A DNA stretch of 64,000 nucleotides from assembly GCA_964607285.1 (NCBI GenBank), contig CAZSJW010000003.1, positions 6,094 to 70,093 on the forward strand, read 5' to 3'. The notes below the pieces were generated by a model that made no database searches, had not been told where the DNA came from, and saw only the letters and a list, made by a program, of their open reading frames with translations. Of this stretch, positions 5,344-36,487 are shown piece after piece (the stretch's first letter is position 1; each line of letters opens with the position of its first letter). The position numbers and the translations under genes are program-made. Source of the stretch: an uncultured Pseudomonadales bacterium (lineage in GTDB: Bacteria > Patescibacteriota > Microgenomatia > UBA1400 > PJMF01).

Positions 5344-5349
5344 TTTTAG

Positions 5350-5498: not shown

Positions 5499-5505
5499 TA
5501 AAACT

Positions 5506-5565
5506 ATGCGATTATTTATGATCAGCAATCTAGCTCATCATACCCACACACATACAATGCGGTGA
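5506..5565 (+). CDS. His/Thr-codon-rich leader peptide (MRLFMISNLAHHTHTHTMR), putative attenuation leader of the hisS operon
   Basis: ATG 8 nt after the -10 element (apparently leaderless); 4 His codons and 3 Thr codons within 7 consecutive codons (5536-5556); stop at 5563-5565; followed by intrinsic terminator; hisS downstream. Confidence 0.55.
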   Translation: MRLFMISNLAHHTHTHTMR

Positions 5566-5582
5566 TGGGATTCTAGTAGCAA

Positions 5583-5627
5583 TTTGAGCACAATAACCCC
5601 GCCGCAAGCGGGTTTTTTTGTGCTCAA
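5583..5627 (+). terminator. Intrinsic terminator / attenuator hairpin
   Basis: Long inverted repeat TTGAGCACAATAACCCCGC-CGCAA-GCGGGTTTTTTTGTGCTCAA; GC-rich CCCGC/GCGGG stem followed by 7 Ts (5613-5619). Confidence 0.7.
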
Positions 5628-5637
5628 AAAAGGTTTT

Positions 5638-7595: not shown

Positions 7596-7618
7596 CTTCA
7601 CATGCTATTCTTACTACT

Positions 7619-9492: not shown

Positions 9493-9509
9493 ACCTGCGA
9501 TCCCACTTT

Positions 9510-11285
9510 TTACTTCACCGTCACACTCTTGGCAATATTCCTCGGTGTATCTAGCGGGTTCCCCTTCTCCACCGCCATGTAGTATGCCAAAAGCTGCACT
9601 GGGACTATAGTAACCAGCGCACTTGCTTCCCCAAAATCTGCAATTTCCACATGAGCCACAGCCATGGGCAAAGAAGCACTGCCAAGGCTATACACTTGCG
9701 CGCCTCGAGCAGAAACTTCGTGAGCCGCACTTTCGATGTCCTTGAGAACAGCATCTTGAGCAGTCAACACTAGTACTGGAACACCCGATTGCATCAGCGT
9801 GATCGCATAATGCTTCAAGTCCCCTGCAGGTATGGCATGCGCATGTACGTATGAGCCCTCAATAATCTTAACCATACCTTCTCGGGCTATTTCCATAAGT
9901 TGCCCTTTGCCTAACAGGAATAGACTAGTCGAGTTTGCGAGCGTTTTTGCCAAAGCTCTAAGTTGCTGCTGCAACTGCGTATCAGCAAGCAGTATATCTA
10001 TCTGAGCCGCAGCAGATCTCAGTTGTGTGATTCCTGCACTGTACGTACTAGCAACAGAGTGTGCCAACAGAAACCCCCAAGCGCACTGCGATAAAAATAT
10101 CTTGGTGGACATGACACAAACTTCTGGGCCAGCACCAGCCATGAACGGAAAGTCAGACATGCGTGTCATCATTGATCCAGCCATATTAACGTAGCTAGCT
10201 ATTTTGACGCCTTTTTGCTGCGCATGTTCGAGTACCTCCAAGACATCAGCTGTCTCACCGCTTTGGGACGGGGCGATGATCAAATCGCCTTTCCGAAACA
10301 ATGACCAGTAACTTTGACTTTCCGCACCAATCAAACTGATTGCGTTTACATTCGCAATGGTTCTGAGATAGTACCCAATCTGCGCTGCAGCCGCGCCTGC
10401 TGTACCCGAACCAATGGTATATACGGTTTTAGCGTTCTTGATTGCTTGAGAAAGCTCGTCCAACCCCACCTGAGACTGCGCAACGACCGCTTGCAAGGTC
10501 TGTGCAGACTCATGAATTTCTTTCAGCATAAAGTGGGCGTAGCCAGCTTTGTTGAGGTCTTGCAGTTGGTTTTGGTGTGGAGCAAAATTGGCTTTTACGG
10601 GTTTACCTGTTGAAACCGTAAATAGTTTAACTTTTCCATCTTGCACTTGCACGATTTGTCCATTTTCGACCACTAATATTTCGCTACAAGCAGCTCCCAG
10701 AGACAATGAGTCAGAAGATAAAAGTATTTCCTCTCCACCAGAGCTTCGCCCCACAACCAGTGGTGAACCATTGCGAACTGCCAATATCACGCCTTCCAAA
10801 GTCAGTACGGCAAAGGTATTTCTACCCTCTGCTCTCTTTGCAGTAATGCGCAGTGCTTCCTGAAGCTGCAGTTTTTCAGTCAAGAACTGCTCCACTTGTC
10901 GTACCAGCACTTCGCTGTCTGTTTGAGAAATGAACTCGTGCCCCTGCTTTTTCAATGCAGCTGCCAACTCCCGAGAATTTTCCACAATTCCGTTGTGCAC
11001 CAAGGCAAATGAGTTATCTTTAGCTAAGTGCGGATGTGCGTTAGCCTTGGTTACTCCGCCATGGGTTGCCCACCTGGTGTGACCAAGCGCAACCACGCTT
11101 GCAGCAACTTTTGGCTCCATTTCCAAAGTTGGAACAGAGCCGACTGCCTTTTCACACTGGAGCGAACTCGCCACCTGCGCAACAACTCCCCAAGAGTCGT
11201 AGCCTCGATATGCTAATCGCCTCAGTCCTGCAAATACCTGGGGTGCTGCTGGCTTACCACCAACGTACGCGAAAATTCCACACAT
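9510..11285 (-). CDS. glmS: Glutamine--fructose-6-phosphate aminotransferase GlmS
   Basis: Start at MCGIFAYVGG (N-terminal Cys nucleophile, class II amidotransferase) preceded by AAAGGAGG RBS; two SIS domains; C-terminal ...LAYYMAVEKG.. Confidence 0.85.
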   Translation of the reverse strand: MCGIFAYVGGKPAAPQVFAGLRRLAYRGYDSWGVVAQVASSLQCEKAVGSVPTLEMEPKVAASVVALGHTRWATHGGVTKANAHPHLAKDNSFALVHNGIVENSRELAAALKKQGHEFISQTDSEVLVRQVEQFLTEKLQLQEALRITAKRAEGRNTFAVLTLEGVILAVRNGSPLVVGRSSGGEEILLSSDSLSLGAACSEILVVENGQIVQVQDGKVKLFTVSTGKPVKANFAPHQNQLQDLNKAGYAHFMLKEIHESAQTLQAVVAQSQVGLDELSQAIKNAKTVYTIGSGTAGAAAAQIGYYLRTIANVNAISLIGAESQSYWSLFRKGDLIIAPSQSGETADVLEVLEHAQQKGVKIASYVNMAGSMMTRMSDFPFMAGAGPEVCVMSTKIFLSQCAWGFLLAHSVASTYSAGITQLRSAAAQIDILLADTQLQQQLRALAKTLANSTSLFLLGKGQLMEIAREGMVKIIEGSYVHAHAIPAGDLKHYAITLMQSGVPVLVLTAQDAVLKDIESAAHEVSARGAQVYSLGSASLPMAVAHVEIADFGEASALVTIVPVQLLAYYMAVEKGNPLDTPRNIAKSVTVK

Positions 11286-11389
11286 GTGGCCTCCTTTGAT
11301 AGTGTTGATAGAAAATTTGTCAGTCGAAATAAATCGACCAACTGTGGTACGAACAATGCTTTGGCTCACTCGTTACCGAATGTATTTGA

Positions 11390-11545
11390 CAATGTTCTTA
11401 ATTGGCTTACCACTAACCAGAGGGTTTCCGCTGATGCTCATCTTGCTTTTTTGGGCAAGATGGTCCGATTGTGCTTTGGTTGTTACAACCTAGCACCCCT
11501 CTTCCTCGTTATCCCCGCCAAAGGCGGGGACCAGACGCTCTGCGA
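11390..11545 (-). ncRNA. Candidate glmS ribozyme / structured glmS 5' leader
   Basis: Minus-strand RNA upstream of glmS reads ...GCAGAGCGUCUGG-UCCCCGCC-UUU-GGCGGGGAUAACGAGGAAGAGGGGUGCUAGGUUGUAACAACC...; AGCG(U)C site, P1-like hairpin and ACGAGGA..GGGG elements resemble the glmS ribozyme core; about 320-nt UTR. Confidence 0.35.
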
Positions 11546-11900
11546 AAAAAATTTATTGAGTTTCCTTTCTAGGGTTTACACCTCCCAAAATATATGTATG
11601 TTACCTTTACAGTAATTGTACTACACAATAATTTTGATTTATTCAATTCAAGCCAAATAATAAAGAAGTACCAACTCCAAAAAGCCTATTTGATCGTAAA
11701 GCTCCATATCTGATTATCGCAGGTTGCATAGCACCAGTTCCCTATTTCATATACGCGCTTTCGAATTTCTCAGAAAAATCAGATTTTCGACCGCCTGAAC
11801 CTAAAAGTTAGCGCAAGTTGTGACATACCTCAGACTTCCCTTTCCTCAACTTCATGCTATAATTGTTCCTCTTGCAAACAAATAATTAGCAAAGATTTTT

Positions 11901-12284
11901 ATGAAACAAGGCATACACCCAAGCTGGAACAATGACACACTCGTTACCTGTAGTTGTGGCAACTCATTTCAAATAGGTTCCGCTACTGACACATTGACCG
12001 TAGACATCTGCAACAAATGTCATCCATTCTTCACAGGCGAAATGCGTTTTGTAGACCGCCAAGGTCGTGTCGAGAAGTTTATCAAAAAGATGGCAAGTGC
12101 TAAAGCTACTGCCAGTACCAGGAAAAATAAAAAAGTCAAAACACAAGTTGATACTGGTCCAAGAAAATCCTATCAAGATATCCTTCGCACCCAACAGACA
12201 AACCTGAAGCAAGCTGCATCTGCGCAAGCAAACCCTGCTTCAGACTCTAAAGCTGAAGATTCCTCCAAAGCAGCCAACAAGTAG
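11901..12284 (+). CDS. rpmE: 50S ribosomal protein L31 (Zn-ribbon type) with extended Lys-rich C-terminal tail
   Basis: N-terminal 65 aa match L31 (MKQGIHP..., CxC...CxxC Zn ribbon); additional ~60-aa K/A/T-rich tail; extended -10 TGCTATAAT upstream. Confidence 0.8.
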
Positions 12285-17829: not shown

Positions 17830-18264
17830 CTACTTGAATGGATTTCTCCGAGCACCATGGTATGTGAAGTTCTTAGGCTCTTCCTGTAAACGTGCAGCAA
17901 TCAGACGGCGTTGAATGGAATGTTTTACCCAAGACATGAAATCAGAATCAACTGAATACTTGTTCCCGTAATCACTCCTGACTTGATCAAGTGTAGGATC
18001 CAAGTCATAGAACGTCAAAATTAGTGTTTGCACTAACGGAGGATTGCGGAAAGTAACATCGTTCAACACCTCTTCGTCTGTCTTGCCAGAGAAGTCATCA
18101 TAAGCTGAACGATTCCAGTCGAACTGTCGTGGCCGATTTCGCACTCTCTCATTTCGTATGCGAGCTATAACAAAATCTACACATGCTCCAGCCCTTTCTT
18201 GCAGTACGGCACTGTATTTTTCCCGTGCGCTCACATCAATTGATGGACCTACTAGTTCATTCAT
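17830..18264 (-). CDS. Hypothetical protein (144 aa)
   Basis: ORF between ychF and rpsF; no recognisable motif. Confidence 0.35.
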   Translation of the reverse strand: MNELVGPSIDVSAREKYSAVLQERAGACVDFVIARIRNERVRNRPRQFDWNRSAYDDFSGKTDEEVLNDVTFRNPPLVQTLILTFYDLDPTLDQVRSDYGNKYSVDSDFMSWVKHSIQRRLIAARLQEEPKNFTYHGARRNPFK

Positions 18265-18296: not shown

Positions 18297-19376
18297 CTAT
18301 GAACCAATCATGAACTCTACAACATCGTTTGGTCGCATTACGTACTCTTTACCTTCAATCCGAAGTTTGCCTTTCTCACGTACCCCTTTCCAACCTCCCA
18401 GCGCAATAAAATCATCATAATCTGCCACGTTAGCTTTGATAAATTTTTTCGTAAAATCTGTATGAATTACCCCTGCAGCCTCTGGTGCCTTCATGCCAGC
18501 CTGTATTGTCCAGGCTCGCACTTCTAGTTCACCAGCGGTCAAGAAACTTTGTAGTCCAAGCAGCTGATACACTCGTGCTATAACTCGCTCCAACCCACTT
18601 TCAGCCAAACCAAGTTCGGATAAAAATAACTGCTGATCTTCATCAGACAAACTGCTCAACTCACTTTCAATCTTTGCACTGACAACTAACACATTCTCTG
18701 GCTTGGCAGCTAATTCTTTTGCGTATTCTGAAGCTAACTCAACATGTTTTGATACAACTGATTCATCAACGTTGACAGCGTATACCATTGTTTTTGCGGT
18801 CAGTAAACCGAGTTCTCGAGCAATCTGCAACTCGTCAGCTTGAGCAAACTCTCGAATAGGTTTGCCAGCACGTGCTGCTTCCTGCAAACGCTCCACCACA
18901 GCCCACCGTTTTAATAACTCGGGCTCTTTTGTAGCTTTCGGAGCTTTTTGCTTTTCCAAAGTTGCCAAATCAGCTAAAAGTAGCTCTGTCTCAATTGTTT
19001 CTGCATCTGAAACAGGATTGACACTCCCCTCACGAATAATGTCTGGATCGGTAAAACCTCTGACCACATGGCAGATCAAATCAGTTTCACGAATGTGTGC
19101 TAAAAACTGATTCCCTAACCCTTCACCTTCAGATGCACCCTTTACCAAACCAGCAATATCAACAAACTCAACGGTTGCAGGCTTGATGGTACTGGTATGG
19201 ACAACTTTTGCCAACGGCTCTAACCTTGCATCAGGGACAGGCACAATACCTGTGTTTGGATCTATAGTTGCGAAAGGATAGTTTGCGGCCAAAGCAGCTT
19301 GGCGTTTGAGTAACGCGTTAAACAAAGTTGATTTGCCCACATTTGGGAGTCCGACAATACCGACAGATAATGACAT
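18297..19376 (-). CDS. ychF: Ribosome-binding ATPase YchF (Obg-family GTPase)
   Basis: G1 GLPNVGKST, NxxE-type G4, C-terminal TGS domain. Confidence 0.85.
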   Translation of the reverse strand: MSLSVGIVGLPNVGKSTLFNALLKRQAALAANYPFATIDPNTGIVPVPDARLEPLAKVVHTSTIKPATVEFVDIAGLVKGASEGEGLGNQFLAHIRETDLICHVVRGFTDPDIIREGSVNPVSDAETIETELLLADLATLEKQKAPKATKEPELLKRWAVVERLQEAARAGKPIREFAQADELQIARELGLLTAKTMVYAVNVDESVVSKHVELASEYAKELAAKPENVLVVSAKIESELSSLSDEDQQLFLSELGLAESGLERVIARVYQLLGLQSFLTAGELEVRAWTIQAGMKAPEAAGVIHTDFTKKFIKANVADYDDFIALGGWKGVREKGKLRIEGKEYVMRPNDVVEFMIGS

Positions 19377-19405: not shown

Positions 19406-22400
19406 TTACGAAGGGGTATTAAATAGTGCTCCCATCGAACCCTGGAACACGCTCATTCCGTATTGGAGGAAAAATGTATCAAAAGAAAAATCGGGTTGTA
19501 GCATAAGTGCAGTACCTTCAAAGGTCATTACCGCTTTCAAAATGCGCATGTAAGTAGGATTTACTTCCAACCCATGATTCCCGCACTCAAACAGAATTGA
19601 ACTAATCATAAGAGAAGTTCTCCCTGAAAACTCGGGAAGTAACTGCTCTAACTTGTGTTCTAACCCAATTCTGTCAAACCTTGCTTGAGATGCTGAGGTA
19701 TCCACCAGTATGTCTACAATATGTTTGGTAGACTTTGTTGTAATGGCTAGAATGAGAGGTACTAGACTATTTCTCTCTCGTTCTGCAGCATACCCAGTAC
19801 GACCAAAGTCCAGCAACTCTATCTCGCCTGTAAGAGGATTGACCCGTACATTTCCAGGGTGAAGGTCATCATGGAAAACACCATGAGAAATTATCTGCCT
19901 AATGAGTAATGATCCCAGTTTGACAACTACATCCTTTTTTAGTGTCGAATCAACTATCTCCCTAACGTTGACTCCTGAAGCAAATGACTGAACCAAGACA
20001 CTTTCACCTGAAAGCCCAGGGTGATAGCTCGGAATAGTGAAGCCTTGTGGTAAATCCTTTCGCATTGCTTCTGCATTCTCCCTCTCTTTGCGAAAATCTA
20101 ACTCTTCCTCCATTGATGTTTTAAACTCAGTAAACATGGCAATTGGATCATAGGTACCACCGAAACGGTCTTTATTGCGCTGCATCAGCCAACACACTTT
20201 TCCAATTCTATCCAGAGTACGTCTCACTACTTGCCGCTTGCTTGGAGTAATGACTTTCACCACCACTGCAGTCCCATCTAGTAAGGTTGCCGCGTAAACC
20301 TCACCAATAGTGCCAACTTTTAGGGCTGTTGTTTCAAATGATCCGAATACTTCTGTAAGTGGCTTGCCAAGCTGCAGTTCCACCGTTTTACGAACTTCCT
20401 CAAATGAGCTTGCTTCTACATCCTCTTGGAACTGCTCGAGCTCAACTCGGTAGTTTTCTGGGATCAGATCTCTTCTCGTACTAAGAAACTGCCCCACCTT
20501 CTCCATCCCCGTTACCTCGAAAAATCGCTGTACTGCTTTTTCTGGAGGCAGCGTCTGGTTTACTTCAAACTCATCCAGAATCGCCCTACGCTCACCATAC
20601 GGCAACAGCATAAAGTACTGCTTCATCATAAACTGCACAACTTCGGGCATTTTTTCAAATACGGCAGGAGTTTCAATGTTTCCCTCCTGAATTGCATCTA
20701 CTCGGCTGATGTATTCAAGCCGAGCTTGGTGAAGAGTATCGCTGATTTCCTGTTTTTTTTCAGTAGGTTGATCTATGTCACCATAGATACGAAGGAGTAA
20801 AATAGCATCAGATGTATCTGGACCCTTTAAAAAACGGATTAGTGAATGGTATTGGGTTGTTCCTAAATTGATTTCACCTGTAACTTCAGTGGTGAGCTGA
20901 GAATAAGTAATACCACCTTTGTTCCAAGGGACTTTTGATTCTTTTTTGAATCGACCTTCTTGTTTATTTCGCCAAAAAATATCTTCTACTTTCTGGAATT
21001 GTGCCTCAGTAAACACAAAATTTGGTAAGTACTTTTGTAATTCTTCTTCAAGATCTTCCACTGTGTAGCTATAAAATGAATAAGATGGAACATCCATATT
21101 CCAGTTACTTTTCACATACATTTCCTCGATGTTTTCCAAAAACTTTTCATATGAGCGATGTTCACCGTTGGAATCAAAATTGGTATCGTACGTTATCAAT
21201 AGATCAAGATCATTCGTCAACGATGGCAACCAAAAAGTTCCTTTGGTTATAAAAAAATCGCGCAACTCGAAAAACTGTTCCTTTGACCCTTTGTAATAAA
21301 TATGTAGACCGCTATCGGGATATCTGTGTACATTTTCGATTTGCCAAGGAACGACATCATGCGTTACTGCAAACTCGAATTTTTGAAAAAACTCACCTGC
21401 TCGATGAGGATTTTTTAGCAAAAATGCCACCATATGATCGTTTGGCAGTGTATCACTGCACAGTATCAACAATTTTTTCATCCATTCATAAAACTGCCGT
21501 TGTTCTGAATCACCTGAGGCACGCACACTAGTAGAGAAGTAATTGTCTACATAACTCGTCACTTTATCTGTTTTTGCCAAGTTTTCAAATACAACTTGTT
21601 GTACCAATGTTGGGACAGCAGTATTCCCAAGTAAATCTAAATAAAGCGGATACTTCATGGCCGCTTCTTCTGCTGAGCCAGCTTGTAAAAATACTCTCAG
21701 TAGTTGTTCAGCTTCTGCTGAAAATTGCGCTCCGCTTGAATACAGTAATTTTTCAAGCGCACCATGCAGCGCACCAATACTCTGCAAGTTCAGTAAATCC
21801 TGTTTAGTGAAGATAAACTCACTCGTTTTAGTGTTTCTGAATGCCACCATCTCCTGAGACGAGATTTCAGTTAAGACCTGCAGTAAATGGACCAAGCGTG
21901 TGGTAACAAGCTCTGGGTTCGAGAGCACTCTTGTCAGTTCTGATAAAACTGCATCCAGTGTCTCTTGCATGTCAAAATATCCAGCGCGTATCCGATTAAG
22001 ATCAAAAAACCCATCAACCACGATAGGACCTTGCAGCACAGTTTCAGCTGTCGCTGGCAAAAGTGCTGCTATGAATGAAAAATGTTGGCTATCATCTACA
22101 CAACTCTGCAAACAGTCAAAATTGCTATCATAGAGGAACTCAGGATAGTACTTTGTGAGGTAATCAAACATATTGCTCATCAGAGTAAAGTTTGAAGAGG
22201 TTATCAACTCATCTTGAATTGAGGCAAATATCTTTAGGATTTCAAGCTCCGTTTTTGCAAATCGGCGATCACTGGCAATCTCATTTGCCATTGTAAGCAA
22301 TGTCACAAAGCTACCCGAGAAGTATGTCCAATCTTTATTCTCAGGTGGAGTCATAGCTATCACCAATTCACTTAGGAGTTGATCTTTTTGAGCATCAGAA

Positions 22401-25400
22401 AGTGGTGAGTGCCGAATAGATTTATATAAATACTTTGTTCCATCAGTAAAGACTGAGGAATTCTCGCCACCACGCTCAAGTACAAGTTTAGCTGTTGCGA
22501 TTTTAAATAACTCATATCCAGTTTCAACCAAACCTTCGGCCTCACAAACTAAACGAGCTGTTTTAATTACTGATCTTGTGTCAAACCTACCTCGCCTTCC
22601 TTGTACATCAGCAAGAAAGCTACTGGTTACTTCATCAAGTATTTGATCAGAGACAGCGGTTTTATCTTGTTTTCTCAAGCTTAGCAACAGTTTTGTTTTT
22701 AAAACTGAATCAAAGTACTGTTGCCAGAACAATGCATTTTTTAAGTTACTCTGCAAATCGTCTTTATGCCGTGATCCATACTGCAGTTTCTGATCAGCAG
22801 TAAAGGTATCAATTTTCCTCTGTGCAGTATGAACCAGTCTTTCCACTTCCTTAGTAGCCCTTCGATACACTATAAGTGCATCTGGAATATTTCCAACCGC
22901 AACAAGCGCATCTAAAGCCTCCATCAGTACAATGGTTTTATACTCAGCATCACTATAATTATTGTTTGGCTCCAGCTCTAACGATTCAACGTTTCGCATT
23001 ATAGTTTCCTGCAATCTGACATCACCTGGATTTGCTAAAGGAATTGCAGTTGCTAATGCACCTATTTTGAACGGTAACTGTTCAAAATGTATGCGTCTGT
23101 AACTTGACCAAGGATATTTTTCATCATACAAGTGAGTTGTCGAGCTCTTAAAATAATGAGGGTTAAAAAATGGCTTCCTAGACTCAGCTAAATCAAGTAA
23201 TGTCTGAATACCTCTTTCATATGCTTTTTGATTATTTTTTTGTCGTAAATCAAACACTGCTTGTTTTTTTTGTTGTTCAAGTACAAGATGCAGGTCAGCA
23301 AAGCTTGTGGGCCTGCTATAGTCATACTCTTTCATCTGTCGTACTCTATCAGAATATCTTTCACTGTTCTCGATACACTCATATTTAGCAAGACTTTTAG
23401 CTGTCTGTAACGCACTTGATTTCCATTCCGCTACAAAATGTTCAACATCTGCATCTGAGATAGTATCAGGCATTTTCTCAGCTGCTAGCTCAAACATGCT
23501 GCACTTTTCAGGAATATTTTCCATGGTGTATAAAAGTTGCAGTCCCTTGCTAAAGTTTGGTGGATCATTAAAAAGATTAGTTAAAACAGAAACATATGGC
23601 TCACTAAAAACTTTGAAATACTCATACTCTTTGTTTTCACTAGAAACGTAGAGTAAAAAGGGAAATGGTCCTAGATTTTTGTCATAAGCAACTTTAAAGC
23701 CTTCTGCTAACACTGCAAGTTGCAATTCAGTAGCAATTTTTGCATACTCTGTTGCTTGTGAAAAAATACTTGATGCAAGTTCCTCATACCGTTTACTGAG
23801 CTCCTGATCTAAAGCGTGCACTGCACGAGAGAGTTTGCTGATTGATACTGCATCCAGAGGAGACACCCTAGTTAACTCAAGATATACTTCCAATTCCTCA
23901 CTTTGAGAGACTTTATTAATGACGTAATCAGCATTAGGTGCTAAAACGTACTCCTCATTTGCCCGTAACTGCACAACCAAAGCATACAGCTCACTTGTAC
24001 TTACTCTCTTTCCCTCCTGTTTACGATTGTCAAACAATTCTTCTACTTTTTTGCGACCTTCTATAGTAAACCTACCATTGTAAGCTTCAACATACCTACG
24101 AAGTAGTACTTTCTTAATTTTTGATTCATTTTGACTCAATTTTTTTTCAATCTCGGGAAGTAACTGCTTTGCCAAGTCAACCAATCCCACTTGAATCAAT
24201 TTCTCTGAAAGTTGCTGCAAATCACCAATACTTGCGCCTCTCACACCATGTCGTTCAATATAGTACTTTATTACGGTAATCCCTTGCTCCGAATATCCCG
24301 CTCGCATCATCGATGCACCCACATCAAACAACTTTTTTGAATAATCTTCATATCTGCTTTTAGTTTTTGCAACTTCTAACACATCCGCAACTAACTCCTT
24401 ATATAGTTTAGCCGCTGCTGCACCAAAGCTTTTCTCGGCAAACAACAATCGTTCAGAAAAATATGACCCACTGCTTGCATCTCTTTTTCTACCAGCATGC
24501 AGTCGTTTTGCAAACTCGCCTGTTAGTCTAATTTTCAATCGTGTTGCTTCTTTATCAGCAACAATTCTTTCTCGAAGCTTGTTTGTCGGCTCGGGCCTAT
24601 TCTCAAATGTTAGTGCCAACAACGACTCCTTGCTAATTTCGACTGTCTTCTCAGCAGTCCCACCTGCTGTATCTTCTTCTTCAATTTCATCTTCATCCAC
24701 ATCCCGCGGTGAGTTCTTCCTTTGCAAGTTCTGGAGAATCTGTGAAAGATACTCCTGTGCTAAACCTACAATCTTGCCTTGAAAAACAGGATCAGATACT
24801 GATTTGAGCAACTTACCAGTATCTAGTTTTATCTGAATTCCACCATTGTCAGTGACGCTCAACCCAATTTCAGGAATACTAATGAGTTCTTTGTTGCGCA
24901 ACTGCCTGACTATATTGCCTGACTGCTGTTTGTAGTACTGATCGTGAAAGGGCGAGATGACTGGCATCTGCTCAACCAATCCCTCAAATCCCCCACTTTC
25001 ATATGCAGCTGCAACTTGTGGCAGGTACTCATCAGAGCCTAAACTTATTTCAACTCCAAACTTAGCCAACTCTTTGCTCAGTTGCAATTCTGCTAAATAT
25101 GAATGCGCCTCATCTCTCATCAATTGTGCATGTAAATTTTTCTCAAGTTGGCTATCTGTGGCATCTAAATCCATCAACAGTTTGCTGTCTTGCACTGGAA
25201 GAGCGTGTTTTATTTCATGAATTAGCATTCTTGGAGAAACCCTGGTGCCACGCTCGATAGATATTTGTGTTGCATACGTCGAAGACCGATTTGCAAATTG
25301 CGCAGCTGACCGCATTGCAGCACTTGCATCACCAATCACTATGGGAACGTGTGCCAGTACATCCTCTATCATTGGCGCACAGTAATCTGGAGATACAACA

Positions 25401-25582
25401 GACAGCAATTCAAGCACTCTTGTGATATCTTCGGGTGTGAGAATGGGGTTGGTCAGTTGCTCTGCAAGAGCTCTCGCTAGTTTTTCAGCCTCTTCTTTTG
25501 ATAACTCAGTACCATTCTGTATCTCTGAAATTGTAGAAAGTACATCTATTTCATGCATAGTGAACAAGAACATTCCATGCAT
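19406..25582 (-). CDS. Giant multi-domain protein (2058 aa) with C-terminal ABC1/UbiB-type atypical kinase domain
   Basis: C-terminal ~450 aa: ALKVGTIGEVYAATLLDGTAVVVKV (ATP-binding Lys) and HDDLHPGNVRV...LLDFG (catalytic and DFG-like) typical of ABC1/AarF/UbiB kinases; N-terminal ~1600 aa largely alpha-helical with an HEIKH (HExxH) motif near residue 120. Confidence 0.6.
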   Translation of the reverse strand: MHGMFLFTMHEIDVLSTISEIQNGTELSKEEAEKLARALAEQLTNPILTPEDITRVLELLSVVSPDYCAPMIEDVLAHVPIVIGDASAAMRSAAQFANRSSTYATQISIERGTRVSPRMLIHEIKHALPVQDSKLLMDLDATDSQLEKNLHAQLMRDEAHSYLAELQLSKELAKFGVEISLGSDEYLPQVAAAYESGGFEGLVEQMPVISPFHDQYYKQQSGNIVRQLRNKELISIPEIGLSVTDNGGIQIKLDTGKLLKSVSDPVFQGKIVGLAQEYLSQILQNLQRKNSPRDVDEDEIEEEDTAGGTAEKTVEISKESLLALTFENRPEPTNKLRERIVADKEATRLKIRLTGEFAKRLHAGRKRDASSGSYFSERLLFAEKSFGAAAAKLYKELVADVLEVAKTKSRYEDYSKKLFDVGASMMRAGYSEQGITVIKYYIERHGVRGASIGDLQQLSEKLIQVGLVDLAKQLLPEIEKKLSQNESKIKKVLLRRYVEAYNGRFTIEGRKKVEELFDNRKQEGKRVSTSELYALVVQLRANEEYVLAPNADYVINKVSQSEELEVYLELTRVSPLDAVSISKLSRAVHALDQELSKRYEELASSIFSQATEYAKIATELQLAVLAEGFKVAYDKNLGPFPFLLYVSSENKEYEYFKVFSEPYVSVLTNLFNDPPNFSKGLQLLYTMENIPEKCSMFELAAEKMPDTISDADVEHFVAEWKSSALQTAKSLAKYECIENSERYSDRVRQMKEYDYSRPTSFADLHLVLEQQKKQAVFDLRQKNNQKAYERGIQTLLDLAESRKPFFNPHYFKSSTTHLYDEKYPWSSYRRIHFEQLPFKIGALATAIPLANPGDVRLQETIMRNVESLELEPNNNYSDAEYKTIVLMEALDALVAVGNIPDALIVYRRATKEVERLVHTAQRKIDTFTADQKLQYGSRHKDDLQSNLKNALFWQQYFDSVLKTKLLLSLRKQDKTAVSDQILDEVTSSFLADVQGRRGRFDTRSVIKTARLVCEAEGLVETGYELFKIATAKLVLERGGENSSVFTDGTKYLYKSIRHSPLSDAQKDQLLSELVIAMTPPENKDWTYFSGSFVTLLTMANEIASDRRFAKTELEILKIFASIQDELITSSNFTLMSNMFDYLTKYYPEFLYDSNFDCLQSCVDDSQHFSFIAALLPATAETVLQGPIVVDGFFDLNRIRAGYFDMQETLDAVLSELTRVLSNPELVTTRLVHLLQVLTEISSQEMVAFRNTKTSEFIFTKQDLLNLQSIGALHGALEKLLYSSGAQFSAEAEQLLRVFLQAGSAEEAAMKYPLYLDLLGNTAVPTLVQQVVFENLAKTDKVTSYVDNYFSTSVRASGDSEQRQFYEWMKKLLILCSDTLPNDHMVAFLLKNPHRAGEFFQKFEFAVTHDVVPWQIENVHRYPDSGLHIYYKGSKEQFFELRDFFITKGTFWLPSLTNDLDLLITYDTNFDSNGEHRSYEKFLENIEEMYVKSNWNMDVPSYSFYSYTVEDLEEELQKYLPNFVFTEAQFQKVEDIFWRNKQEGRFKKESKVPWNKGGITYSQLTTEVTGEINLGTTQYHSLIRFLKGPDTSDAILLLRIYGDIDQPTEKKQEISDTLHQARLEYISRVDAIQEGNIETPAVFEKMPEVVQFMMKQYFMLLPYGERRAILDEFEVNQTLPPEKAVQRFFEVTGMEKVGQFLSTRRDLIPENYRVELEQFQEDVEASSFEEVRKTVELQLGKPLTEVFGSFETTALKVGTIGEVYAATLLDGTAVVVKVITPSKRQVVRRTLDRIGKVCWLMQRNKDRFGGTYDPIAMFTEFKTSMEEELDFRKERENAEAMRKDLPQGFTIPSYHPGLSGESVLVQSFASGVNVREIVDSTLKKDVVVKLGSLLIRQIISHGVFHDDLHPGNVRVNPLTGEIELLDFGRTGYAAERERNSLVPLILAITTKSTKHIVDILVDTSASQARFDRIGLEHKLEQLLPEFSGRTSLMISSILFECGNHGLEVNPTYMRILKAVMTFEGTALMLQPDFSFDTFFLQYGMSVFQGSMGALFNTPS

Positions 25583-25652: not shown

Positions 25653-26717
25653 CTACTCACCTTTTACCTGAGAGTCGAAAAACTCAATAGATCTGCGCAT
25701 AGCAGCACTGAAATTTTCAGTCAAATTGTGATCATCTCCTGGATACACATGCAGATCTACTATCTTTCCTTGGGTTTCCATTTGCTCAGCTAGTGTCTCT
25801 GAAAACTCCACAGGAACTGAAGTGTCTGCTGTACCATGATGTAGCTGGACTGGACCAGAAATTTCATCAATAAAACTATTAGCAGAAAGTGAGTTCCAAA
25901 AATCTGGATTCTCTTCTGGCTCACCATATTCTTCAATCAATTGAGCTCGCCAACGACCCCGTTGCGAACCCAACATCGGCGTGGGTGGCGGAGCGTTTCC
26001 CCTACGCCAGTTTCGAAGTAAATCTGGGTATGACCCAACGACACCAGCCCAAATTACTCCAGCTTTGATCGATGGATCCACAACCATTGCCCGCATTGTT
26101 ATGTGTCCACCCATTGAGTGCCCCCACATACCAATCCGTTGCGCATCTGCATCAGGATGTCTTTTTACTGAAGCCAAAGCGTTCAGTACATCCACAGTAT
26201 ATGCATTTGATCCATATCCGCCGACTGCCTCGCCCTCAGACTGATCATGCCCACGATAGTCTGGTCGAATTAGCATGTATCCATTTCGTGAAAACCCATC
26301 CGTGTACGCAATATACCGCTCTGTAGTTCTGTACTCAGAGGGAGCTATGTACCCATGATTAAATATAATGACAGGCCAACCAGTCTGCGGCCTCTCTCCA
26401 TTTGGTATTGTTAGAAGAGCGTACTGTTTCAGACCTTCTGAGAGATATGAAACACGGTATCGTTGATAGTTTGTTCCTGGTGAGAGTGTTTCTTCAATTA
26501 CTAAATCACTGCCAATATACTCAACTGATTTGAGTGCGGTGATTGACAATGGATGTGGTGCTACAGGCGGCAGAAGTGCATCAATGGTTTTCTCACCACT
26601 AACTGCTGTAAATAATGATCCTGAATCTGTATCTACCCAGGTTACATTGTTCAGTATTACGAAAACTCCAACTAACGCACAAACACAAATCACAGTAAAA
26701 AGCAAAAGTTTCGACAT
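25653..26717 (-). CDS. S9-family alpha/beta-hydrolase peptidase (membrane-anchored)
   Basis: GxSxG nucleophile elbow GHSMGGH, catalytic D/H context, N-terminal TM. Confidence 0.6.
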   Translation of the reverse strand: MSKLLLFTVICVCALVGVFVILNNVTWVDTDSGSLFTAVSGEKTIDALLPPVAPHPLSITALKSVEYIGSDLVIEETLSPGTNYQRYRVSYLSEGLKQYALLTIPNGERPQTGWPVIIFNHGYIAPSEYRTTERYIAYTDGFSRNGYMLIRPDYRGHDQSEGEAVGGYGSNAYTVDVLNALASVKRHPDADAQRIGMWGHSMGGHITMRAMVVDPSIKAGVIWAGVVGSYPDLLRNWRRGNAPPPTPMLGSQRGRWRAQLIEEYGEPEENPDFWNSLSANSFIDEISGPVQLHHGTADTSVPVEFSETLAEQMETQGKIVDLHVYPGDDHNLTENFSAAMRRSIEFFDSQVKGE

Positions 26718-31189: not shown

Positions 31190-31689
31190 TAGCGAACTCC
31201 TATGGTAGTGGCAAATGATCTGTCCTCACTCCCTCTGGGTGGTTGTGCCCCAGCTGACGCTGTAAAACTGACTCGAAGTGAGTCGAAATCAGATCCATCA
31301 CTAACCCTCGTAAACTGCAAATCAGATATTGATAAATCTGCACGATGCATGCTCTGAGTACTCCCTCCAGCAGTAAGTTCAATGGCCGTTCCACTCAGTT
31401 GATAGATGAATGGTTGCCCATCGATCAGTAGGCTGAGCGTATCTCCGCTGGTTCCAGGAGTAGGAATAGTGATCAAATCAGCTCGGTAAACATCATACTC
31501 AATTCGTTGCAACAAATACTGCCCTTCTTGCGAAACGATTGAAACCGCCTGCCCTTCCATTTGTGTTTCTAAGCTAGTCAGAAACAATGTAGTTAAACCT
31601 GTCATAAAAACTGTCAACAAACCCATATACAACAACAGCTCGACTAAAGTAAATCCCAGCTGGTAAGTTTTAACAATTGTTTGTTTCAT
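31189..31689 (-). CDS. Prepilin-type pseudopilin/minor pilin
   Basis: N-terminal GFTLVELLLYMGLLTVF methylation motif. Confidence 0.7.
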   Translation of the reverse strand: MKQTIVKTYQLGFTLVELLLYMGLLTVFMTGLTTLFLTSLETQMEGQAVSIVSQEGQYLLQRIEYDVYRADLITIPTPGTSGDTLSLLIDGQPFIYQLSGTAIELTAGGSTQSMHRADLSISDLQFTRVSDGSDFDSLRVSFTASAGAQPPRGSEDRSFATTIGVR

Positions 31690-33632
31690 GGTGAATAATT
31701 AACGGTAACTGAGTATAGTTCAGGAGTTTGCAATGAATCCTCAGAAGAAAAATAAGCTCTATACCGAAAACATCGCCCTGGATTTTCATACCCCGAACCG
31801 TCATTGTTAAATGGAATTGGACCATCGCTTTCAAAAAAAGTACTTGCTGTTCCATCTGGGCCAACAAATGAAAAACTAGCACTTGTGCAACTTCCGCTGA
31901 CTGGGTCAGCAACTGCAACCTGGTATTGAACATCCGTTACGTCACCAGGCTCAATATGTTGAATAAAAAAACGATTAAAAGCAACAGAGTACCCAGGATC
32001 TATAGATGAGGATTCAAAAGTGCCAAACATTGCGTAAGAACCACCTCCTGGTCCGCCTTCAATTACTTTAAACTCTGCAGCAGTATCACCAGTCACAATA
32101 TATGAATATGCATCTCCGTCAGCTTCTTGCACAGCTGATACGCCGTAAATGCCAGTATTTACTTCAATTCCACCACAGCGAACAGGGTTAGACTCATTTG
32201 CTATGTTAACAACTTGATATTCCTCGCCATTTGTTCCAACTAATATCACTTTGTTTCCTGAAACAGCAGTAACACCAGTTGGATTCATTGATCCCGAATT
32301 ATACGAACCTAAAATCGGCAAACTACCTGATTTATTGGTTGTGTTAATAATAAAAAGTTCGGATAAAGAGTTTGACTGTGTTGTAGCTAAATATGCTCTT
32401 GTACCTGTATCATTGACGAACACTTCACGCCCATACTCGCCATTTACGTTCGCCGTTGCCACACTGTAAATATTGGTGCGATTACTAACATTTGCCACCC
32501 TGAGTTCAGCTGAACCCCAATCAACTGCCACGTATGCATAGTTGTTTACAACCTGTAATCTCCTGCCCGTTCCCCATAAAAACAGCGAGTCTAACATCGA
32601 TCTTGATCCAGTCTTGCTAGTTACGTCAAAGGTTACCAACCAAGCACCTGCAGTCATATATCCTGTATTACCCACAACATAAATTCCGTTTGCAGTCCCA
32701 TAAAACCAAGGAGCATCAAAGTATCCTACTTCCTGATTTGTGCTTAGATCTATAATCACAATGTTTTTTGTGCCATCATCGGTAGCTATATATGCATAGT
32801 TTGTGTCAATGAAAATATCATTGGTATCGTATCCAGTGATAGTAGAACTAACACTAACTGAAGGAGGATCAGCGTTAGTAACAGCAATTTCCGAAAAGAC
32901 ACCTGTGTTTGCAAAATCAGTCCCAGCAAACGCTTTGCCCTCAATTGCTCTAACTGCCCTTGCTGCAGCATTTTGAGGTAAGTCTAGTTGTGCCACAATA
33001 AACTCGTTTGGAACACACCAGTCACCATTTCCTGCACTAGCCAAAATAACTTCCCCTCCCGCTGTACTAGTGGAAACAGTATCTGTAAGTGTGCCAGCCT
33101 CAAACTCTGCTTGGCTACTTTGTGTAACTGTCACGTTATCGCCAAACCGAGACAAGTACATCTGATGGGTTACTATTTCAGATTTCGGAATTGACCACCC
33201 AACCTCAATCGTAATCAATTTGGTTGAAGGATCCAGTGAGCCACCACTACTAACAATTTGTTGTGTATCATCTCTATACACGTCACTAATTTGAATCTCT
33301 CTAGTCAAAGTACCAACTGTTTCTCCCCCAGCGACCAAACTCCAACTGCCTGATTGAACTACAGGATGGTAAGTACCATTTGCTGCCACTGCATCCCACG
33401 TTTCATCTCGTGCAGCTCGGACTGCTTCTGTTGCTTCACGCACTAGTTGTGCTGCTTCTAATCGCTGCTCCTGTTGTGCTTTTCCCTCTCGGGTAATAAT
33501 AAAACCTGAAAGTAGAGCTGGAATTATTAGCGCAGCTACTCCAATTGCCACAAGAAGTTCAATCAATAACTGGCCCGTCTGATAACGTATACACCGAGGG
33601 ACGCTAGTAGCTTTATTCAAATATTTACTCAT
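31686..33632 (-). CDS. Large prepilin-like protein with LVIVD-type beta-propeller repeats (candidate pilus tip adhesin)
   Basis: N-terminal TGQLLIELLVAIGVAALII pilin-like helix; C-terminal repeats NNYAYVAVDWGSAELRVANVSN, YAYIATDDGTKNIVIIDLSTNQEV, KVILVGTNGEEYQVVNIAN resembling LVIVD repeats. Confidence 0.55.
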   Translation of the reverse strand: MSKYLNKATSVPRCIRYQTGQLLIELLVAIGVAALIIPALLSGFIITREGKAQQEQRLEAAQLVREATEAVRAARDETWDAVAANGTYHPVVQSGSWSLVAGGETVGTLTREIQISDVYRDDTQQIVSSGGSLDPSTKLITIEVGWSIPKSEIVTHQMYLSRFGDNVTVTQSSQAEFEAGTLTDTVSTSTAGGEVILASAGNGDWCVPNEFIVAQLDLPQNAAARAVRAIEGKAFAGTDFANTGVFSEIAVTNADPPSVSVSSTITGYDTNDIFIDTNYAYIATDDGTKNIVIIDLSTNQEVGYFDAPWFYGTANGIYVVGNTGYMTAGAWLVTFDVTSKTGSRSMLDSLFLWGTGRRLQVVNNYAYVAVDWGSAELRVANVSNRTNIYSVATANVNGEYGREVFVNDTGTRAYLATTQSNSLSELFIINTTNKSGSLPILGSYNSGSMNPTGVTAVSGNKVILVGTNGEEYQVVNIANESNPVRCGGIEVNTGIYGVSAVQEADGDAYSYIVTGDTAAEFKVIEGGPGGGSYAMFGTFESSSIDPGYSVAFNRFFIQHIEPGDVTDVQYQVAVADPVSGSCTSASFSFVGPDGTASTFFESDGPIPFNNDGSGYENPGRCFRYRAYFSSEDSLQTPELYSVTVNYSP

Positions 33633-34137
33633 CGAGCAGTACCCCATATTGATTCACGGTAAACCCAGCACTCTCACCAGACTCTACGTTTGAAATAGTA
33701 ATTGTGTCTTGACCTGACATAAACCCAACAACTTCCCCACTGCCGTGCTGAAATACCAAGATATTGCTTGGAAGTTCAGTCGAGATACTCACCGCTTCTT
33801 CCATAATCGTTTCCACATTACCCTGAGCCCCTGGGACATACGAGGATCCCTCAAAAAAGGTATACCGATCTGCAGCAAAAAAAACCCCGAATGCAGAAGG
33901 TCCCGCAACTATACCTACATCCCCTTGCATAGCGCGTGCCTGCAGCAATCTCAGTTCTGAGCGAAGCGTCTCTGCTGTGCTTCGAACAGCTACCCGAGGA
34001 ATCAATCTAGACAAGCTGACAGAGCTAATCCCATACAACACAGCAACAATTCCCATCACTAGGATCAATTCAATTAACGTAAATCCAGATTGGACGACTC
34101 TCCTACTGTGAACAGGGATAAAAAAACTGGCGGGCAT
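33625..34137 (-). CDS. Prepilin-type pseudopilin/minor pilin
   Basis: SGFTLIELILVMGIVAVLYGI motif; start at MPASFF to avoid overlap with upstream histidine kinase gene. Confidence 0.7.
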   Translation of the reverse strand: MPASFFIPVHSRRVVQSGFTLIELILVMGIVAVLYGISSVSLSRLIPRVAVRSTAETLRSELRLLQARAMQGDVGIVAGPSAFGVFFAADRYTFFEGSSYVPGAQGNVETIMEEAVSISTELPSNILVFQHGSGEVVGFMSGQDTITISNVESGESAGFTVNQYGVLLDE

Positions 34138-34189: not shown

Positions 34190-36487
34190 TTATACCCAAA
34201 AGCTAGATCGCGTCCTGATGATACCAACGTCCTCTCTTTTCTTGAACTCATCTTCTAACTTCTTAAAATCTTCTTGCGTATATTTTTTCAATGAAAAACA
34301 AAAGCTTGAACCCTTTCCTTCACCAGGAGATGTTGCCCATATTTCACCCTTATGCAACTCAACAACTGCCCGACTAATAAATAGTCCCAAACCTGTCCCC
34401 TGCGATGCATTCTGGTTTGTTTTGTAAGAACCCTTGATTAGGCCAAATTTTTGAAACAATTTACTGATAGTATCTGGAGTCATGCCAACACCTGTATCCG
34501 TAACACTAGTTATCAGCATGTCCTCTTCTTGTCTGAATGATATTGTTATCTTACCTTTTTTGGGCGTAAACTTTAAAGAATTTCCCAGTAAATTCATCAC
34601 CACTTCGCTCAATTTATCACTATCAGCGATGACTGGGGGCACTGCTCCCAATGACTTGCCTGTCCTGTCTGTACAGTGATCCGCTACCTCCACAGTAATA
34701 TCTAATTCATCTGTTCTAGACTTGACCTCTGCTACGATTTCAGTGACTAACGCTTGTAGATCTACTTTACCAACTGTCAAGGCAATGCGGTGTGACTCAA
34801 TTCGCGAAATATTGAGCATGTCATTCACTAATTTGATGAGACGATCCGTTGATAAATATGATCGTTCCAAATAGTATCGTTGCTTCTTAGAAAGCTGACC
34901 GCCCTTACCACTCAGTGCCATCCATATATAAGATTTTATGGCAGTCATTGGAGTTCTTAGCTCATGTGAAGCTATGGACACAAAATCATCTTTCAGTCTG
35001 TCAAGTTCCTTTAGACTCTTATTTGCCCGACGTAGTTTTGAGGTTGCCCGTAACACTTCATCCTCCAAAACAACGTTAAATTGTTTTATCTCTTCAAATG
35101 AGAGCGCATTGCGAAGCGCAATTGCAATTTGAGGTGCAATTAGTTGTAGTGTTTTGATGTCTTCAGAGGTATACACAGTACCAGTTTGCTTTTCTTGCAA
35201 GAGCATGCATCCCAAATAATCATTATTAACAATCAGGGGCAAGATCACAGCAATCTGTCTCTCTCTCATAATTGACTTGATTACGGACTCATCGATTTCA
35301 TCAAAGATGATGATTTGATCACGAGCTTTTCCCAAGGCATTCTTGACTGCTTCATATACTTGAAAATCATGTTTAAATTGCTGTAGTTGCGTATCAGATG
35401 TGGGTTGCAATGCCAAAGCATCTGAACCGTACAACCTAACTTTTTTATTATCGTTCCCAATCACAATTGCCATTGCAGAAATTTTCATCTCACCAGATAA
35501 TACTTTGATAAATCCATCTACTAACTTAGTGAGAGACAAAATCGATGTAGAAATTTTGCTCGTAAGTTTCAGCAAATCAGCTCGATCATAATCCCTGCGG
35601 TAAAAAATTGTTTCTGTTTTATGCTGTATCCAGCGTTTCAGTGGCTCAAAAGTCGAAACCACTCCAATTGTCACAGCTGCTGACGTCAAAATAAGGAGCA
35701 TTGATGGTTCTTGCCCTGAAAGCAAACTCTGTAAGTAGAAGACTGAAACGCTATAGACAGCAATAAAAATTCCCATTACTAAGATGTATCCTAATGACCT
35801 AACAATGACCAAGCTTAAATCCAAGAATCGGTGTTTTACGATTGCATAAGCAATCGTGCCTGCAAAAATAAGAGTAAAAATAGGGCCAAACATTACAAAG
35901 GAAGAAATCTGCAAAAGCGCAACAAACACAAAGTTGGTAACAGTCAACAAAGTGAATGAGGAAATGATTCCAGCAAGTAAATACTTGAGCTGAGTCTTCT
36001 CCAAACCGTGTGCCCTTCTAAACTTTTTGATCAAGATCCCAAATCCAGCAATCAGTGTTCCAAAAAACTGTATTGCAAAAACAGGCAATGCTGGTCCTGG
36101 CTGTGGCGTAATGACCCCAGCGACTACTGAAACAGAAGTGAACATAAATGGTGACATTGCCAATACAGAGGTAATGAATCCCATATACAGTATTAAGTTT
36201 TCCCACTTGCCTGAGATTGTAGAGTGGGTTCGAGGAAATGATGCCACCAATAAAAGAATTGCTGGACCTAAAAATGAAGTTACTACCATTACAACTCTAA
36301 TCCAAAATAAAGTTGTTGCCTCATCAGGAGCGTGCAAAGAAAAGTAATTAGTAAGTGTCCATAGACCAATCACTACAGTGAGAAACAAAAAATGCCGATG
36401 TGTATCTCCTTTTGTGTTTTTTAGATACACAAAAAAACCTAACAAAAAGTTAAGAACAGTAACTACAATTGCGACAAGAAGTTCCAC
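34190..36487 (-). CDS. Sensor histidine kinase (multi-TM N-terminal sensor, GAF-like, HisKA, HATPase_c)
   Basis: H-box SHELRTPMTAIKSY, G-box GTGLGLFISRAVVELHKGEIWA; roughly 7 TM helices in N-terminal 300 aa. Confidence 0.8.
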   Translation of the reverse strand: MELLVAIVVTVLNFLLGFFVYLKNTKGDTHRHFLFLTVVIGLWTLTNYFSLHAPDEATTLFWIRVVMVVTSFLGPAILLLVASFPRTHSTISGKWENLILYMGFITSVLAMSPFMFTSVSVVAGVITPQPGPALPVFAIQFFGTLIAGFGILIKKFRRAHGLEKTQLKYLLAGIISSFTLLTVTNFVFVALLQISSFVMFGPIFTLIFAGTIAYAIVKHRFLDLSLVIVRSLGYILVMGIFIAVYSVSVFYLQSLLSGQEPSMLLILTSAAVTIGVVSTFEPLKRWIQHKTETIFYRRDYDRADLLKLTSKISTSILSLTKLVDGFIKVLSGEMKISAMAIVIGNDNKKVRLYGSDALALQPTSDTQLQQFKHDFQVYEAVKNALGKARDQIIIFDEIDESVIKSIMRERQIAVILPLIVNNDYLGCMLLQEKQTGTVYTSEDIKTLQLIAPQIAIALRNALSFEEIKQFNVVLEDEVLRATSKLRRANKSLKELDRLKDDFVSIASHELRTPMTAIKSYIWMALSGKGGQLSKKQRYYLERSYLSTDRLIKLVNDMLNISRIESHRIALTVGKVDLQALVTEIVAEVKSRTDELDITVEVADHCTDRTGKSLGAVPPVIADSDKLSEVVMNLLGNSLKFTPKKGKITISFRQEEDMLITSVTDTGVGMTPDTISKLFQKFGLIKGSYKTNQNASQGTGLGLFISRAVVELHKGEIWATSPGEGKGSSFCFSLKKYTQEDFKKLEDEFKKREDVGIIRTRSSFWV

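Follow-up and report, generated by a model that had tools for sequence, protein, structure and literature searches.

A rare family of giant bacterial proteins with an HExxH motif, a predicted alpha-solenoid and a C-terminal ABC1 domain

Introduction

What is an ABC1/UbiB-type domain doing at the end of a bacterial protein of 2058 residues? The gene that raises this question lies on the reverse strand of a 64,000-nucleotide stretch of contig CAZSJW010000003.1 (assembly GCA_964607285.1), here called the window. A first-pass annotation, made from the letters of the DNA, described its product as a large N-terminal region with an HExxH motif fused to an atypical kinase domain of the ABC1/UbiB type, and offered a scaffold or a secreted factor as possible roles.

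Sequence comparison and structure prediction place the protein in a rare, unnamed family of bacterial proteins of ~1,750-2,300 aa, with some longer variants. The order of modules in this family is an optional HExxH domain, an acidic linker, a predicted alpha-solenoid of ~1,100 residues, a pre-kinase region and the ABC1 domain. The catalytic ABC1 domain is already familiar. No description of the HExxH-solenoid-ABC1 architecture, of its HExxH domain or of its solenoid was found in the literature searched, and none of the three is covered by Pfam (newest models 2025), NCBIfam release 20 or PADLOC. Two regions are thus defined beyond current family libraries.

The biochemical role of UbiB/ABC1 proteins is still debated, and this family is a natural experiment on it. 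It seems to combine, outside a quinone context, an intact ABC1 core having a loop change like the one by which human COQ8A gains autophosphorylation with a presumed binding platform and a putative metallohydrolase, and export signals occur in many of its lineages. Characterisation could show what ABC1 proteins are capable of apart from quinone synthesis. It could also bring to light a means by which poorly known symbionts or predators among the bacteria act on their partners.

A Family of Giant ABC1 Proteins

The gene is read as follows.

19406..25582 (-): whole open reading frame (ORF), ATG start, 2058 aa, coordinates including the stop codon

The frame is unbroken over 6.2 kb. An ORF of this length is too long for chance, and the same co-linear architecture is seen in independently assembled contigs; the gene is therefore real and intact. 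A second possible start, Met9 (nucleotide 25558), gives a protein of 2050 aa and is the start used by public record P0001. The public record of the identical protein is an unnamed singleton. An antisense ORF at 20426-20800 (+) is regarded as spurious.

Relatives are hard to find with fast methods. Apart from the query itself, a word-indexed search with the whole sequence brought up a single ABC1 protein, from a dinoflagellate; with a 13-sequence family alignment, the same kind of search again recovered the protein, along with one generic ABC1 sequence and nothing else. With the kinase domain as query, it gave two contig-end fragments, P0004 and P0005. A scan of genome contigs with the single protein gave no match. 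An exhaustive HMMER search with residues 1-1200 against 1.84 billion cluster representatives found 13 other representatives, nine of which are at least 1,700 aa long (1,742-2,297 aa). A C-terminal ABC1 domain is present in all nine of these, and also in the 1,396-aa P0132. The representatives that lack it (P0126, P0127 and P0133) are all short.

The N-terminal family alignment is too divergent to give search patterns, and a metagenome scan was swamped by the generic HxDLHPGN pattern, adding one true member, L015. A pattern scan of GTDB species genomes placed the family in metagenome-assembled genomes (MAGs) labelled Pseudomonadales (two), Bacteriovoracaceae, Oligoflexia, Elusimicrobiota (three) and Omnitrophica, with a distant copy in one Gammaproteobacteria MAG. 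By tblastn these copies follow the 2058-aa protein in the same order from end to end; co-linear matches were obtained in L003, L005, L006, L008, L010, L011, L012 and L015, and in the family alignment conservation runs along the full length of the protein.

The first-pass annotation had proposed looking for the same architecture in related genomes and for splitting of the frame by frameshifts. More than 10 relatives from independent assemblies have the ORF whole and in the same order, and among them only the one in MAG L011 is frameshifted.

Some members are longer than the rest. In L011 (Omnitrophica GWA2_47_8), positions 2810-12084 hold a family ORF of 2,654 aa with a clear signal peptide and ~600 residues ahead of its HExxH domain; its kinase domain is split by a frameshift near nucleotides 10620-10660, which could be an assembly error or the mark of a pseudogene. 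The member at L015:1-10170 (Ga0154324_103) has at least 3,389 aa and is extended at both ends, by ~500 N-terminal residues that include a hydrophobic segment and by ~770 residues past the kinase domain.

A different kind of giant occurs at L014:1454-20830 (Omnitrophica RIFCSPLOWO2_12_FULL_44_17), where the locus ends within an ORF of at least 6,459 aa. It contains an ABC1 domain, which is the only part with detected similarity to the 2058-aa protein. From its sequence it looks like a second, independent giant-ABC1 architecture.

The C-Terminal ABC1 Domain

Four features describe the C-terminal part of the protein.

19481..20596 (-): ABC1/UbiB-type protein-kinase-like domain including the KxGQ N-terminal extension, residues 1663-2034 (from PF03109, TIGR01982 and PDB sequence matches)
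20489..20500 (-): KxGQ motif, K1695-V-G-Q1698, the UbiB family signature (from motif position)
20294..20320 (-): nucleotide-binding loop KVGTIGEVY, residues 1755-1763 (from alignment to COQ8A)
19802..19873 (-): catalytic loop HDDLHPGN (1904-1911) through DFG (1925-1927), invariant or nearly so in the family

The Pfam model ABC1 (PF03109) covers residues 1718-1957 with E=2.1e-41 and 142.1 bits, far above its 22.9-bit gathering threshold. This match and the intact motifs bear out the atypical kinase domain first proposed for this end of the protein. The motifs quoted in support of that proposal, and the HExxH motif discussed below, lie at their computed positions: HEIKH at 122-126, KVGQ at 1695-1698, KVGTIGEVY at 1755-1763, VVVKVI at 1773-1778, HDDLHPGN at 1904-1911 and DFG at 1925-1927.

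Conservation within the family follows these motifs. K1695, G1697 and Q1698 are each at least 90% conserved and thus nearly invariant. In the family kinase alignment the catalytic lysine (K1776, within VVVKVI), H1904-D-D-L-H-P-G-N1911 and D1925-F-G are invariant, and the ExD..E.N motif is also present and invariant or nearly so. The ABC1 core of the 2058-aa protein thus retains every catalytic residue as well as KxGQ.

The nearest solved chains by sequence are 5yjz (E=1e-18) and 7cy2 (E=4e-15), followed by COQ8B and COQ8A. From these matches to solved ABC1/COQ8 chains, the C-terminal region is predicted to have a protein-kinase-like fold, as the first-pass annotation had expected.

Membership of the ABC1 superfamily does not imply orthology to UbiB. 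TIGR01982 (UbiB) matches residues 1695-2034 with 185.6 bits, below its 487.55-bit cut-off, and NF003404 matches with 121.3 bits against a cut-off of 667. Because these scores are far below the equivalog cut-offs, and because there is no hydrophobic segment to form a transmembrane (TM) helix, the domain is a member of the ABC1 superfamily and not a UbiB orthologue. UbiB in the strict sense is a single-domain protein of ~550 aa with a C-terminal TM anchor, and the 2058-aa protein has neither property.

Compared with ABC1/UbiB/COQ8 proteins in general (PF03109), the domain shares KxGQ, the catalytic lysine, ExD..E.N, HxDxHPGN and DFG, together with the strong HMM (hidden Markov model) match. It differs in standing at the C-terminus of a 2058-aa protein without a TM anchor, in having KVGT-IGEVY for AAAS-IGQVH, and in belonging to a family that extends to lineages from which ubiquinone synthesis is not known. 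The ABC1 ATPases of mycobacteria, which are soluble (5yjz, 7cy2; NF050082, 'macrolide-binding ATPase MABP-1'), likewise have no TM helices, and NF050082 matches the 2058-aa protein weakly. However, they are stand-alone proteins of ~440-450 aa with an ASAS loop and with neither a solenoid nor an HExxH domain. The nearest kinase matches outside the family are actinobacterial 'ABC1 kinase family proteins' of ~650 aa (~31% identity, E ~1e-40). These are one-third as long, have the canonical AAAS loop, and have nothing in common with residues 1-1650.

The nucleotide-binding loop sets the family apart. It reads [KN][VA]GT-[IV]GEVY in 13 of 14 members, whereas generic ABC1 matches have AAAS/ASAS-[IV][AG]QVH. 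The first-pass annotation had described a glycine-rich loop here. The motif is present, but it is a family-specific replacement of the alanine-rich ABC1 loop: the AAAS triad is not kept in the 2058-aa protein, which reads KVGT. When the domain is aligned with human COQ8A, KVGTIGEVY lies opposite AAASIGQVH, and G1757 falls at the third alanine of the triad. Its counterpart in chain 5i35_A is position 85, taken here to be COQ8A A339 on the assumption that the chain starts at residue 255 (N-delta-254 construct).

The alanine at this position matters in COQ8A. Its replacement by glycine (A339G) raises both ATPase activity and cis-autophosphorylation (10.1101/149823), and the mutant is described as having 'clear protein kinase activity' (PMC8956952). 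By analogy, the glycine loop of the 2058-aa protein may have an A339G-like effect.

The Solenoid and the Pre-Kinase Region

Three features join the two ends of the protein.

24623..24715 (-): acidic linker, residues 290-320 (lowest-conservation block of the family alignment)
21353..24622 (-): predicted alpha-solenoid scaffold, residues 321 to ~1410 (from AlphaFold2 model and Foldseek)
20603..21295 (-): conserved pre-kinase region, residues 1430-1660 (from alignment with P0004 and the family alignment)

Residues 321-1440 were modelled with AlphaFold2 (AF2) from a 13-sequence alignment (m467a67236f97). The model has a mean local confidence (pLDDT) of 84 and a global confidence (pTM) of 0.72, and in it the region is almost purely helical, with one small beta hairpin. 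Foldseek matches the middle region only to generic TPR/HEAT scaffolds: Ski3, IFT-A, Ctr9, CRM1, TTC7, ATR, mTOR and TRRAP. The matches have E values of 2e-5 to 1e-3 and, for several, probabilities of 0.99-1.0, but template-modelling (TM) scores of only 0.1-0.24. No repeat-family HMM in Pfam matches residues 1-1700 at E<=0.01.

These data point to an extended alpha-solenoid of the TPR/HEAT type over residues 321-~1410. It can be read as a binding platform, and the model supports the earlier idea of a scaffold. A solenoid of similar kind precedes the kinase-fold module in phosphatidylinositol 3-kinase-related kinases (ATR, mTOR, TRRAP) and accompanies one in the TTC7-PI4KIIIa complex. The likeness is an analogy only: the TM scores are 0.1-0.24, ABC1 does not have the PI3K-like fold, and the family is bacterial.

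Between the solenoid and the ABC1 domain lies the pre-kinase region. The fragment P0004, whose ORF ends at a contig edge, aligns with residues 1430-2035 at 43% identity.

The N-Terminal HExxH Domain

The N-terminal domain contains the motif that first suggested a zincin.

24683..25474 (-): HExxH domain, residues 37-300 (from AF2 model and family alignment)
25205..25219 (-): HEIKH motif, residues 122-126, candidate metal-binding and catalytic site (from motif position and family alignment)
25088..25114 (-): DEAHSYLAE, residues 157-165, with invariant E158 and E165 (from family alignment and AF2 model)

The first-pass annotation had noted a zincin-like HExxH near residue 120 and could assign the first 1600 residues to no family. 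Both statements hold: no Pfam family matches the first ~1,700 residues at E<=0.01, and each of the 11 sequences that bear the domain keeps H122, E123, H126, E158 and E165 unchanged. The consensus around the site is IHExxHA(V)P ... (D/E)E(A/G)xSxxxE, with the invariant glutamates 32 and 39 residues past the second histidine. Since the motif is invariant, together with two downstream glutamates, in every member having the N-terminal domain, it is not a chance pentapeptide.

In an AF2 model of residues 37-300 (m0bd7bb0799df; pLDDT 81, pTM 0.69), three helices come first and three short strands next, followed by the HExxH helix and a long helix that carries both glutamates. HEIKH lies within model helix 81-91, and E158 and E165 lie on model helix 107-137. 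The modelled order of strand, HExxH helix and Glu helix is that of a minimal gluzincin core, and either E158 or E165 might supply a gluzincin-type site with its third metal ligand. Thermolysin-type and minimal zincins share with the model an HExxH helix after a small sheet and a glutamate on the next helix, but neither HMM nor fold searches matched the HExxH domain to a peptidase family.

Searches for a more specific relative found nothing significant. Foldseek against the PDB gave a best E of 0.5; its weak matches include ChlB, an oxygenase, through its HExxH domain (8s5f; E=0.83, TM score 0.30) and the M3 oligoendopeptidase 3sks. Against BFVD the best E was 0.03, and several of the weak matches were two VWA/CobT-type phage proteins, two IrrE-type proteins and one protein annotated 'Peptidase', which we take to be kinds that bear zincin-like domains. 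A profile search of PDB sequences gave no peptidase link, nor did a member-by-member Pfam scan, in which the best match was Tox-MPTase4 (E=0.14, in one of 11 members). The first-pass annotation had asked whether this region folds as a metalloprotease: the predicted order of elements is gluzincin-like, but no significant Foldseek or HMM match ties it to peptidases. The domain is a putative zincin by its motif and the predicted order of its secondary structure.

The closest relatives, P0124/L003 and L005, have no N-terminal domain, nor do P0132, P0134 and P0135. The domain is thus an accessory one.

Localisation

The 2058-aa protein has no predicted TM helix or signal peptide, and no 19-residue stretch of it has a Kyte-Doolittle mean above 1.5. 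At least six homologues are different. Sec-type signal-peptide-like N-termini, consisting of a basic stretch, a hydrophobic stretch and an AxA-like sequence, were seen in P0131, P0142/L006, P0130, P0128, P0134/L010 and L011. The members in L012 and L015 have hydrophobic N-terminal segments too. The signals in homologues, though not in the 2058-aa protein itself, support the earlier suggestion of a secreted factor.

L003 and L005, which lack a Sec signal, also lack the HExxH domain, so neither of the two is essential to the family core.

In four members a cysteine occurs 4-6 residues past the predicted signal-peptidase site: WA-NDDC in P0131, AQG-ATVDC in P0134, AFG-NIEC in P0142 and TQA-IQEDLC in P0128. 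These sequences are not lipoboxes.

Proposed Function

How might these modules work together? The reading preferred here is speculative and is given a probability of about 0.42. It sees the protein as a solenoid-targeted, ATP-dependent enzyme that acts outside the cytoplasm of its producer, as an effector of host- or prey-dependent bacteria.

In this mechanism the ABC1 module would be an active enzyme that binds ATP and hydrolyses it or transfers its phosphate outside ubiquinone synthesis, and the x-x-G-T loop in place of the alanine-rich loop would be a natural equivalent of COQ8A A339G. The solenoid would bind a target or partner. The HExxH domain may serve as an accessory metallohydrolase, directed either at that target or at the protein of which it is part. 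The family would act at or in another cell, on behalf of uncultivated bacteria that depend on hosts or prey; this step is suggested because six or more members bear Sec signals and an ATP-dependent domain would be useless in the periplasm; once exported, it would make sense only where ATP is present, in another cell. Since the 2058-aa protein lacks a Sec signal, it would have to leave the cell by a different route or else work inside its own cytoplasm.

Two known groups of proteins invite comparison. The 'archaeovorins' (10.1101/2023.11.21.568195) are also large, multi-domain proteins with signal peptides and peptidase modules, from overlapping phyla (Omnitrophota, Elusimicrobiota). They are, however, 10,000-40,000 aa long and built mostly of glycosyl hydrolase and glycosyltransferase domains, and the main text of the paper that describes them does not contain the term 'ABC1'. 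Secreted effectors and polymorphic toxins are the other group. The 2058-aa protein differs from them in having no Sec signal and no linked secretion or immunity gene, although six homologues have a signal.

Several points count against an effector role. A Sec signal is missing from the 2058-aa protein as well as from P0124/L003 and L005, the relatives nearest to it, and the signal peptides of the other members were judged by eye. An all-against-all comparison of ORFs from 15 loci linked no secretion-system or immunity gene to the family. The N-terminal domain is without a significant fold or HMM link to any peptidase, and the HExxH-motif domain of an oxygenase is known (8s5f, the weak Foldseek match). 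The effect of the glycine loop is extrapolated from a mutant of human COQ8A, and the UbiB-family proteins studied so far act as ATPases, not as protein kinases (10.1101/149823). The placement of the window in the candidate phyla radiation (CPR), finally, derives from one gene.

A bolder form of the proposal is doubtful. In it, the family would provide the first case of a UbiB/ABC1 domain that serves as an effector between cells, delivered by export or injection from uncultivated bacteria that live as episymbionts or predators (CPR, Omnitrophota, Elusimicrobiota and Bdellovibrionota). Through its naturally 'unlocked' glycine loop the domain would have real kinase activity, or a high ATPase activity, directed at membrane lipids or proteins of the host or prey, alongside a new zincin-like domain and a targeting solenoid. 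If true, such an effector could, for instance, strip or remodel host lipids needed by a lipid-auxotrophic producer.

Alternative Explanations

The main rival keeps the protein inside the cell, as a cytoplasmic, membrane-peripheral ATPase that handles lipids or small molecules. Like COQ8, UbiB and M. tuberculosis MABP-1, its ABC1 ATPase would be stimulated by lipids or hydrophobic ligands that it extracts or chaperones, the solenoid would organise partner enzymes, and in a lipid-auxotrophic episymbiont the whole could process scavenged lipids. The 2058-aa protein fits this picture in having neither a signal peptide nor a TM segment, in its place among housekeeping genes, and in its intact KxGQ, a motif that mediates membrane and cardiolipin binding in COQ8 (10.1101/149823). 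Its closest solved relatives are the soluble mycobacterial ATPases, and MABP-1 itself is weakly matched. Yet Sec-type signal peptides in at least six homologues are incompatible with a purely cytoplasmic role for the family, the alanine-rich loop typical of lipid-handling members is replaced, and the comparison of 15 loci links no lipid or isoprenoid genes to the family. A lipid-handling role is possible but, on balance, somewhat unlikely. The other account that draws on known members of the superfamily takes the protein for a canonical UbiB, regulating ubiquinone biosynthesis, to which a long stretch has been added at the N-terminus; it is effectively excluded and carries very little probability. 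Some sources label homologues 'ubiquinone biosynthesis protein', and the best NCBIfam matches are indeed TIGR01982 and NF003404, but both fall far under their cut-offs. The C-terminal TM helices are absent from the 2058-aa protein, the alanine-rich loop is not conserved, and none of the ~40 window ORFs scanned against Pfam belongs to a ubi-type family. Ubiquinone is essentially confined to Pseudomonadota (10.1101/2025.09.17.676790), and family members are found in MAGs of Elusimicrobiota, Omnitrophica and Bdellovibrionota, which speaks against a role of the UbiB type for the family as a whole.

One further alternative concerns a single domain and fits any reading of the whole protein. The HExxH domain may instead be some other metalloenzyme, for example an HExxH-type oxygenase, or a module that binds metal or regulates without catalysing anything; ABC1 would then be the only hydrolytic or transfer activity. 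The lack of peptidase HMM matches beyond Tox-MPTase4, the appearance of the ChlB domain among the top weak Foldseek matches and the fact that the closest relatives do without the domain all favour this. The invariant HExxH with two glutamates on the next helix, in the element order of a minimal gluzincin, speaks against it, as do the several weak BFVD matches of presumably zincin-like kinds, and a non-peptidase domain is judged improbable. Least probable of all is an artefact, either a false gene fusion made in assembly or annotation or a decaying pseudogene. A MAG-type contig with singleton proteins could raise this suspicion, and so could the frameshift inside the kinase of L011. The unbroken frame, full-length conservation with invariant catalytic residues, and confident AF2 models obtained from alignments of only 9-13 sequences are hard to reconcile with it. 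The recurrence of the module order in more than 10 independent assemblies, from different projects, effectively excludes an assembly artefact.

Gene Neighbourhood

The first-pass annotation placed the gene between ychF and a membrane S9 peptidase on the same strand, and both neighbours were confirmed. Downstream lies ychF (18297-19376; TIGR00092, 415 bits). Upstream, after a gap of 70 nucleotides, is an alpha/beta-hydrolase gene (25653-26717) with S9/S33-type matches and a hydrophobic N-terminal anchor. Beyond the hydrolase come a Vut_1/queuosine-precursor transporter and then a NAGPA-domain protein, all on the same strand.

None of these genes travels with the family. In the comparison of 15 loci, no neighbour gene is common to three or more, and the window shares with L003 only loose housekeeping synteny, in which DprA, PBP2 and Wzy-like genes are 33-35% identical. 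The 2058-aa protein thus has no conserved operon partner and, because no neighbour gene is conserved, is self-contained; a function at the level of the operon was rejected on the same ground. PADLOC assigned no defence system and reported only kinase-motif noise below threshold.

The GC content is 0.383 within the solenoid-coding part (window positions 22001-24000) versus 0.41-0.45 in the flanks.

Other Genes of the Window

The window holds housekeeping genes, type IV pilus genes, DprA and many unannotated ORFs, nearly all on one strand. Its ThyA (53227-54168, -) is 88% identical to a thymidylate synthase of Candidatus Woesebacteria; the other window proteins that were looked up are singletons at 90% identity. 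By sequence, ThyA and the gene content suggest a genome of the CPR/Patescibacteria type.

Six ORFs have no Pfam match at 1e-5: 31686-33647, 38002-39114, 48011-49069 and 51545-52714 on the reverse strand, and 3074-3826 and 5584-6345 on the forward strand. A further one, 17830-18264 (-), has none at E<=0.01. The unmatched ORFs range from 144 to 653 aa.

PilC-like (T2SSF) and PilB-like (T2SSE) type IV pilus genes are among the reverse-strand ORFs 34190-36487, 36531-37997 and 39585-42338. Near them are a 7TM-HisKA sensor kinase and a ThiF-family protein of 488 aa. A second kinase-fold gene, at 8545-9492 (+), encodes an APH-family phosphotransferase of 315 aa and adjoins an EamA transporter. The MreB-like protein encoded at 61374-62390 (-) is unusually divergent, scoring 93 bits on PF06723 and sharing 23% identity with the MreB of L003.

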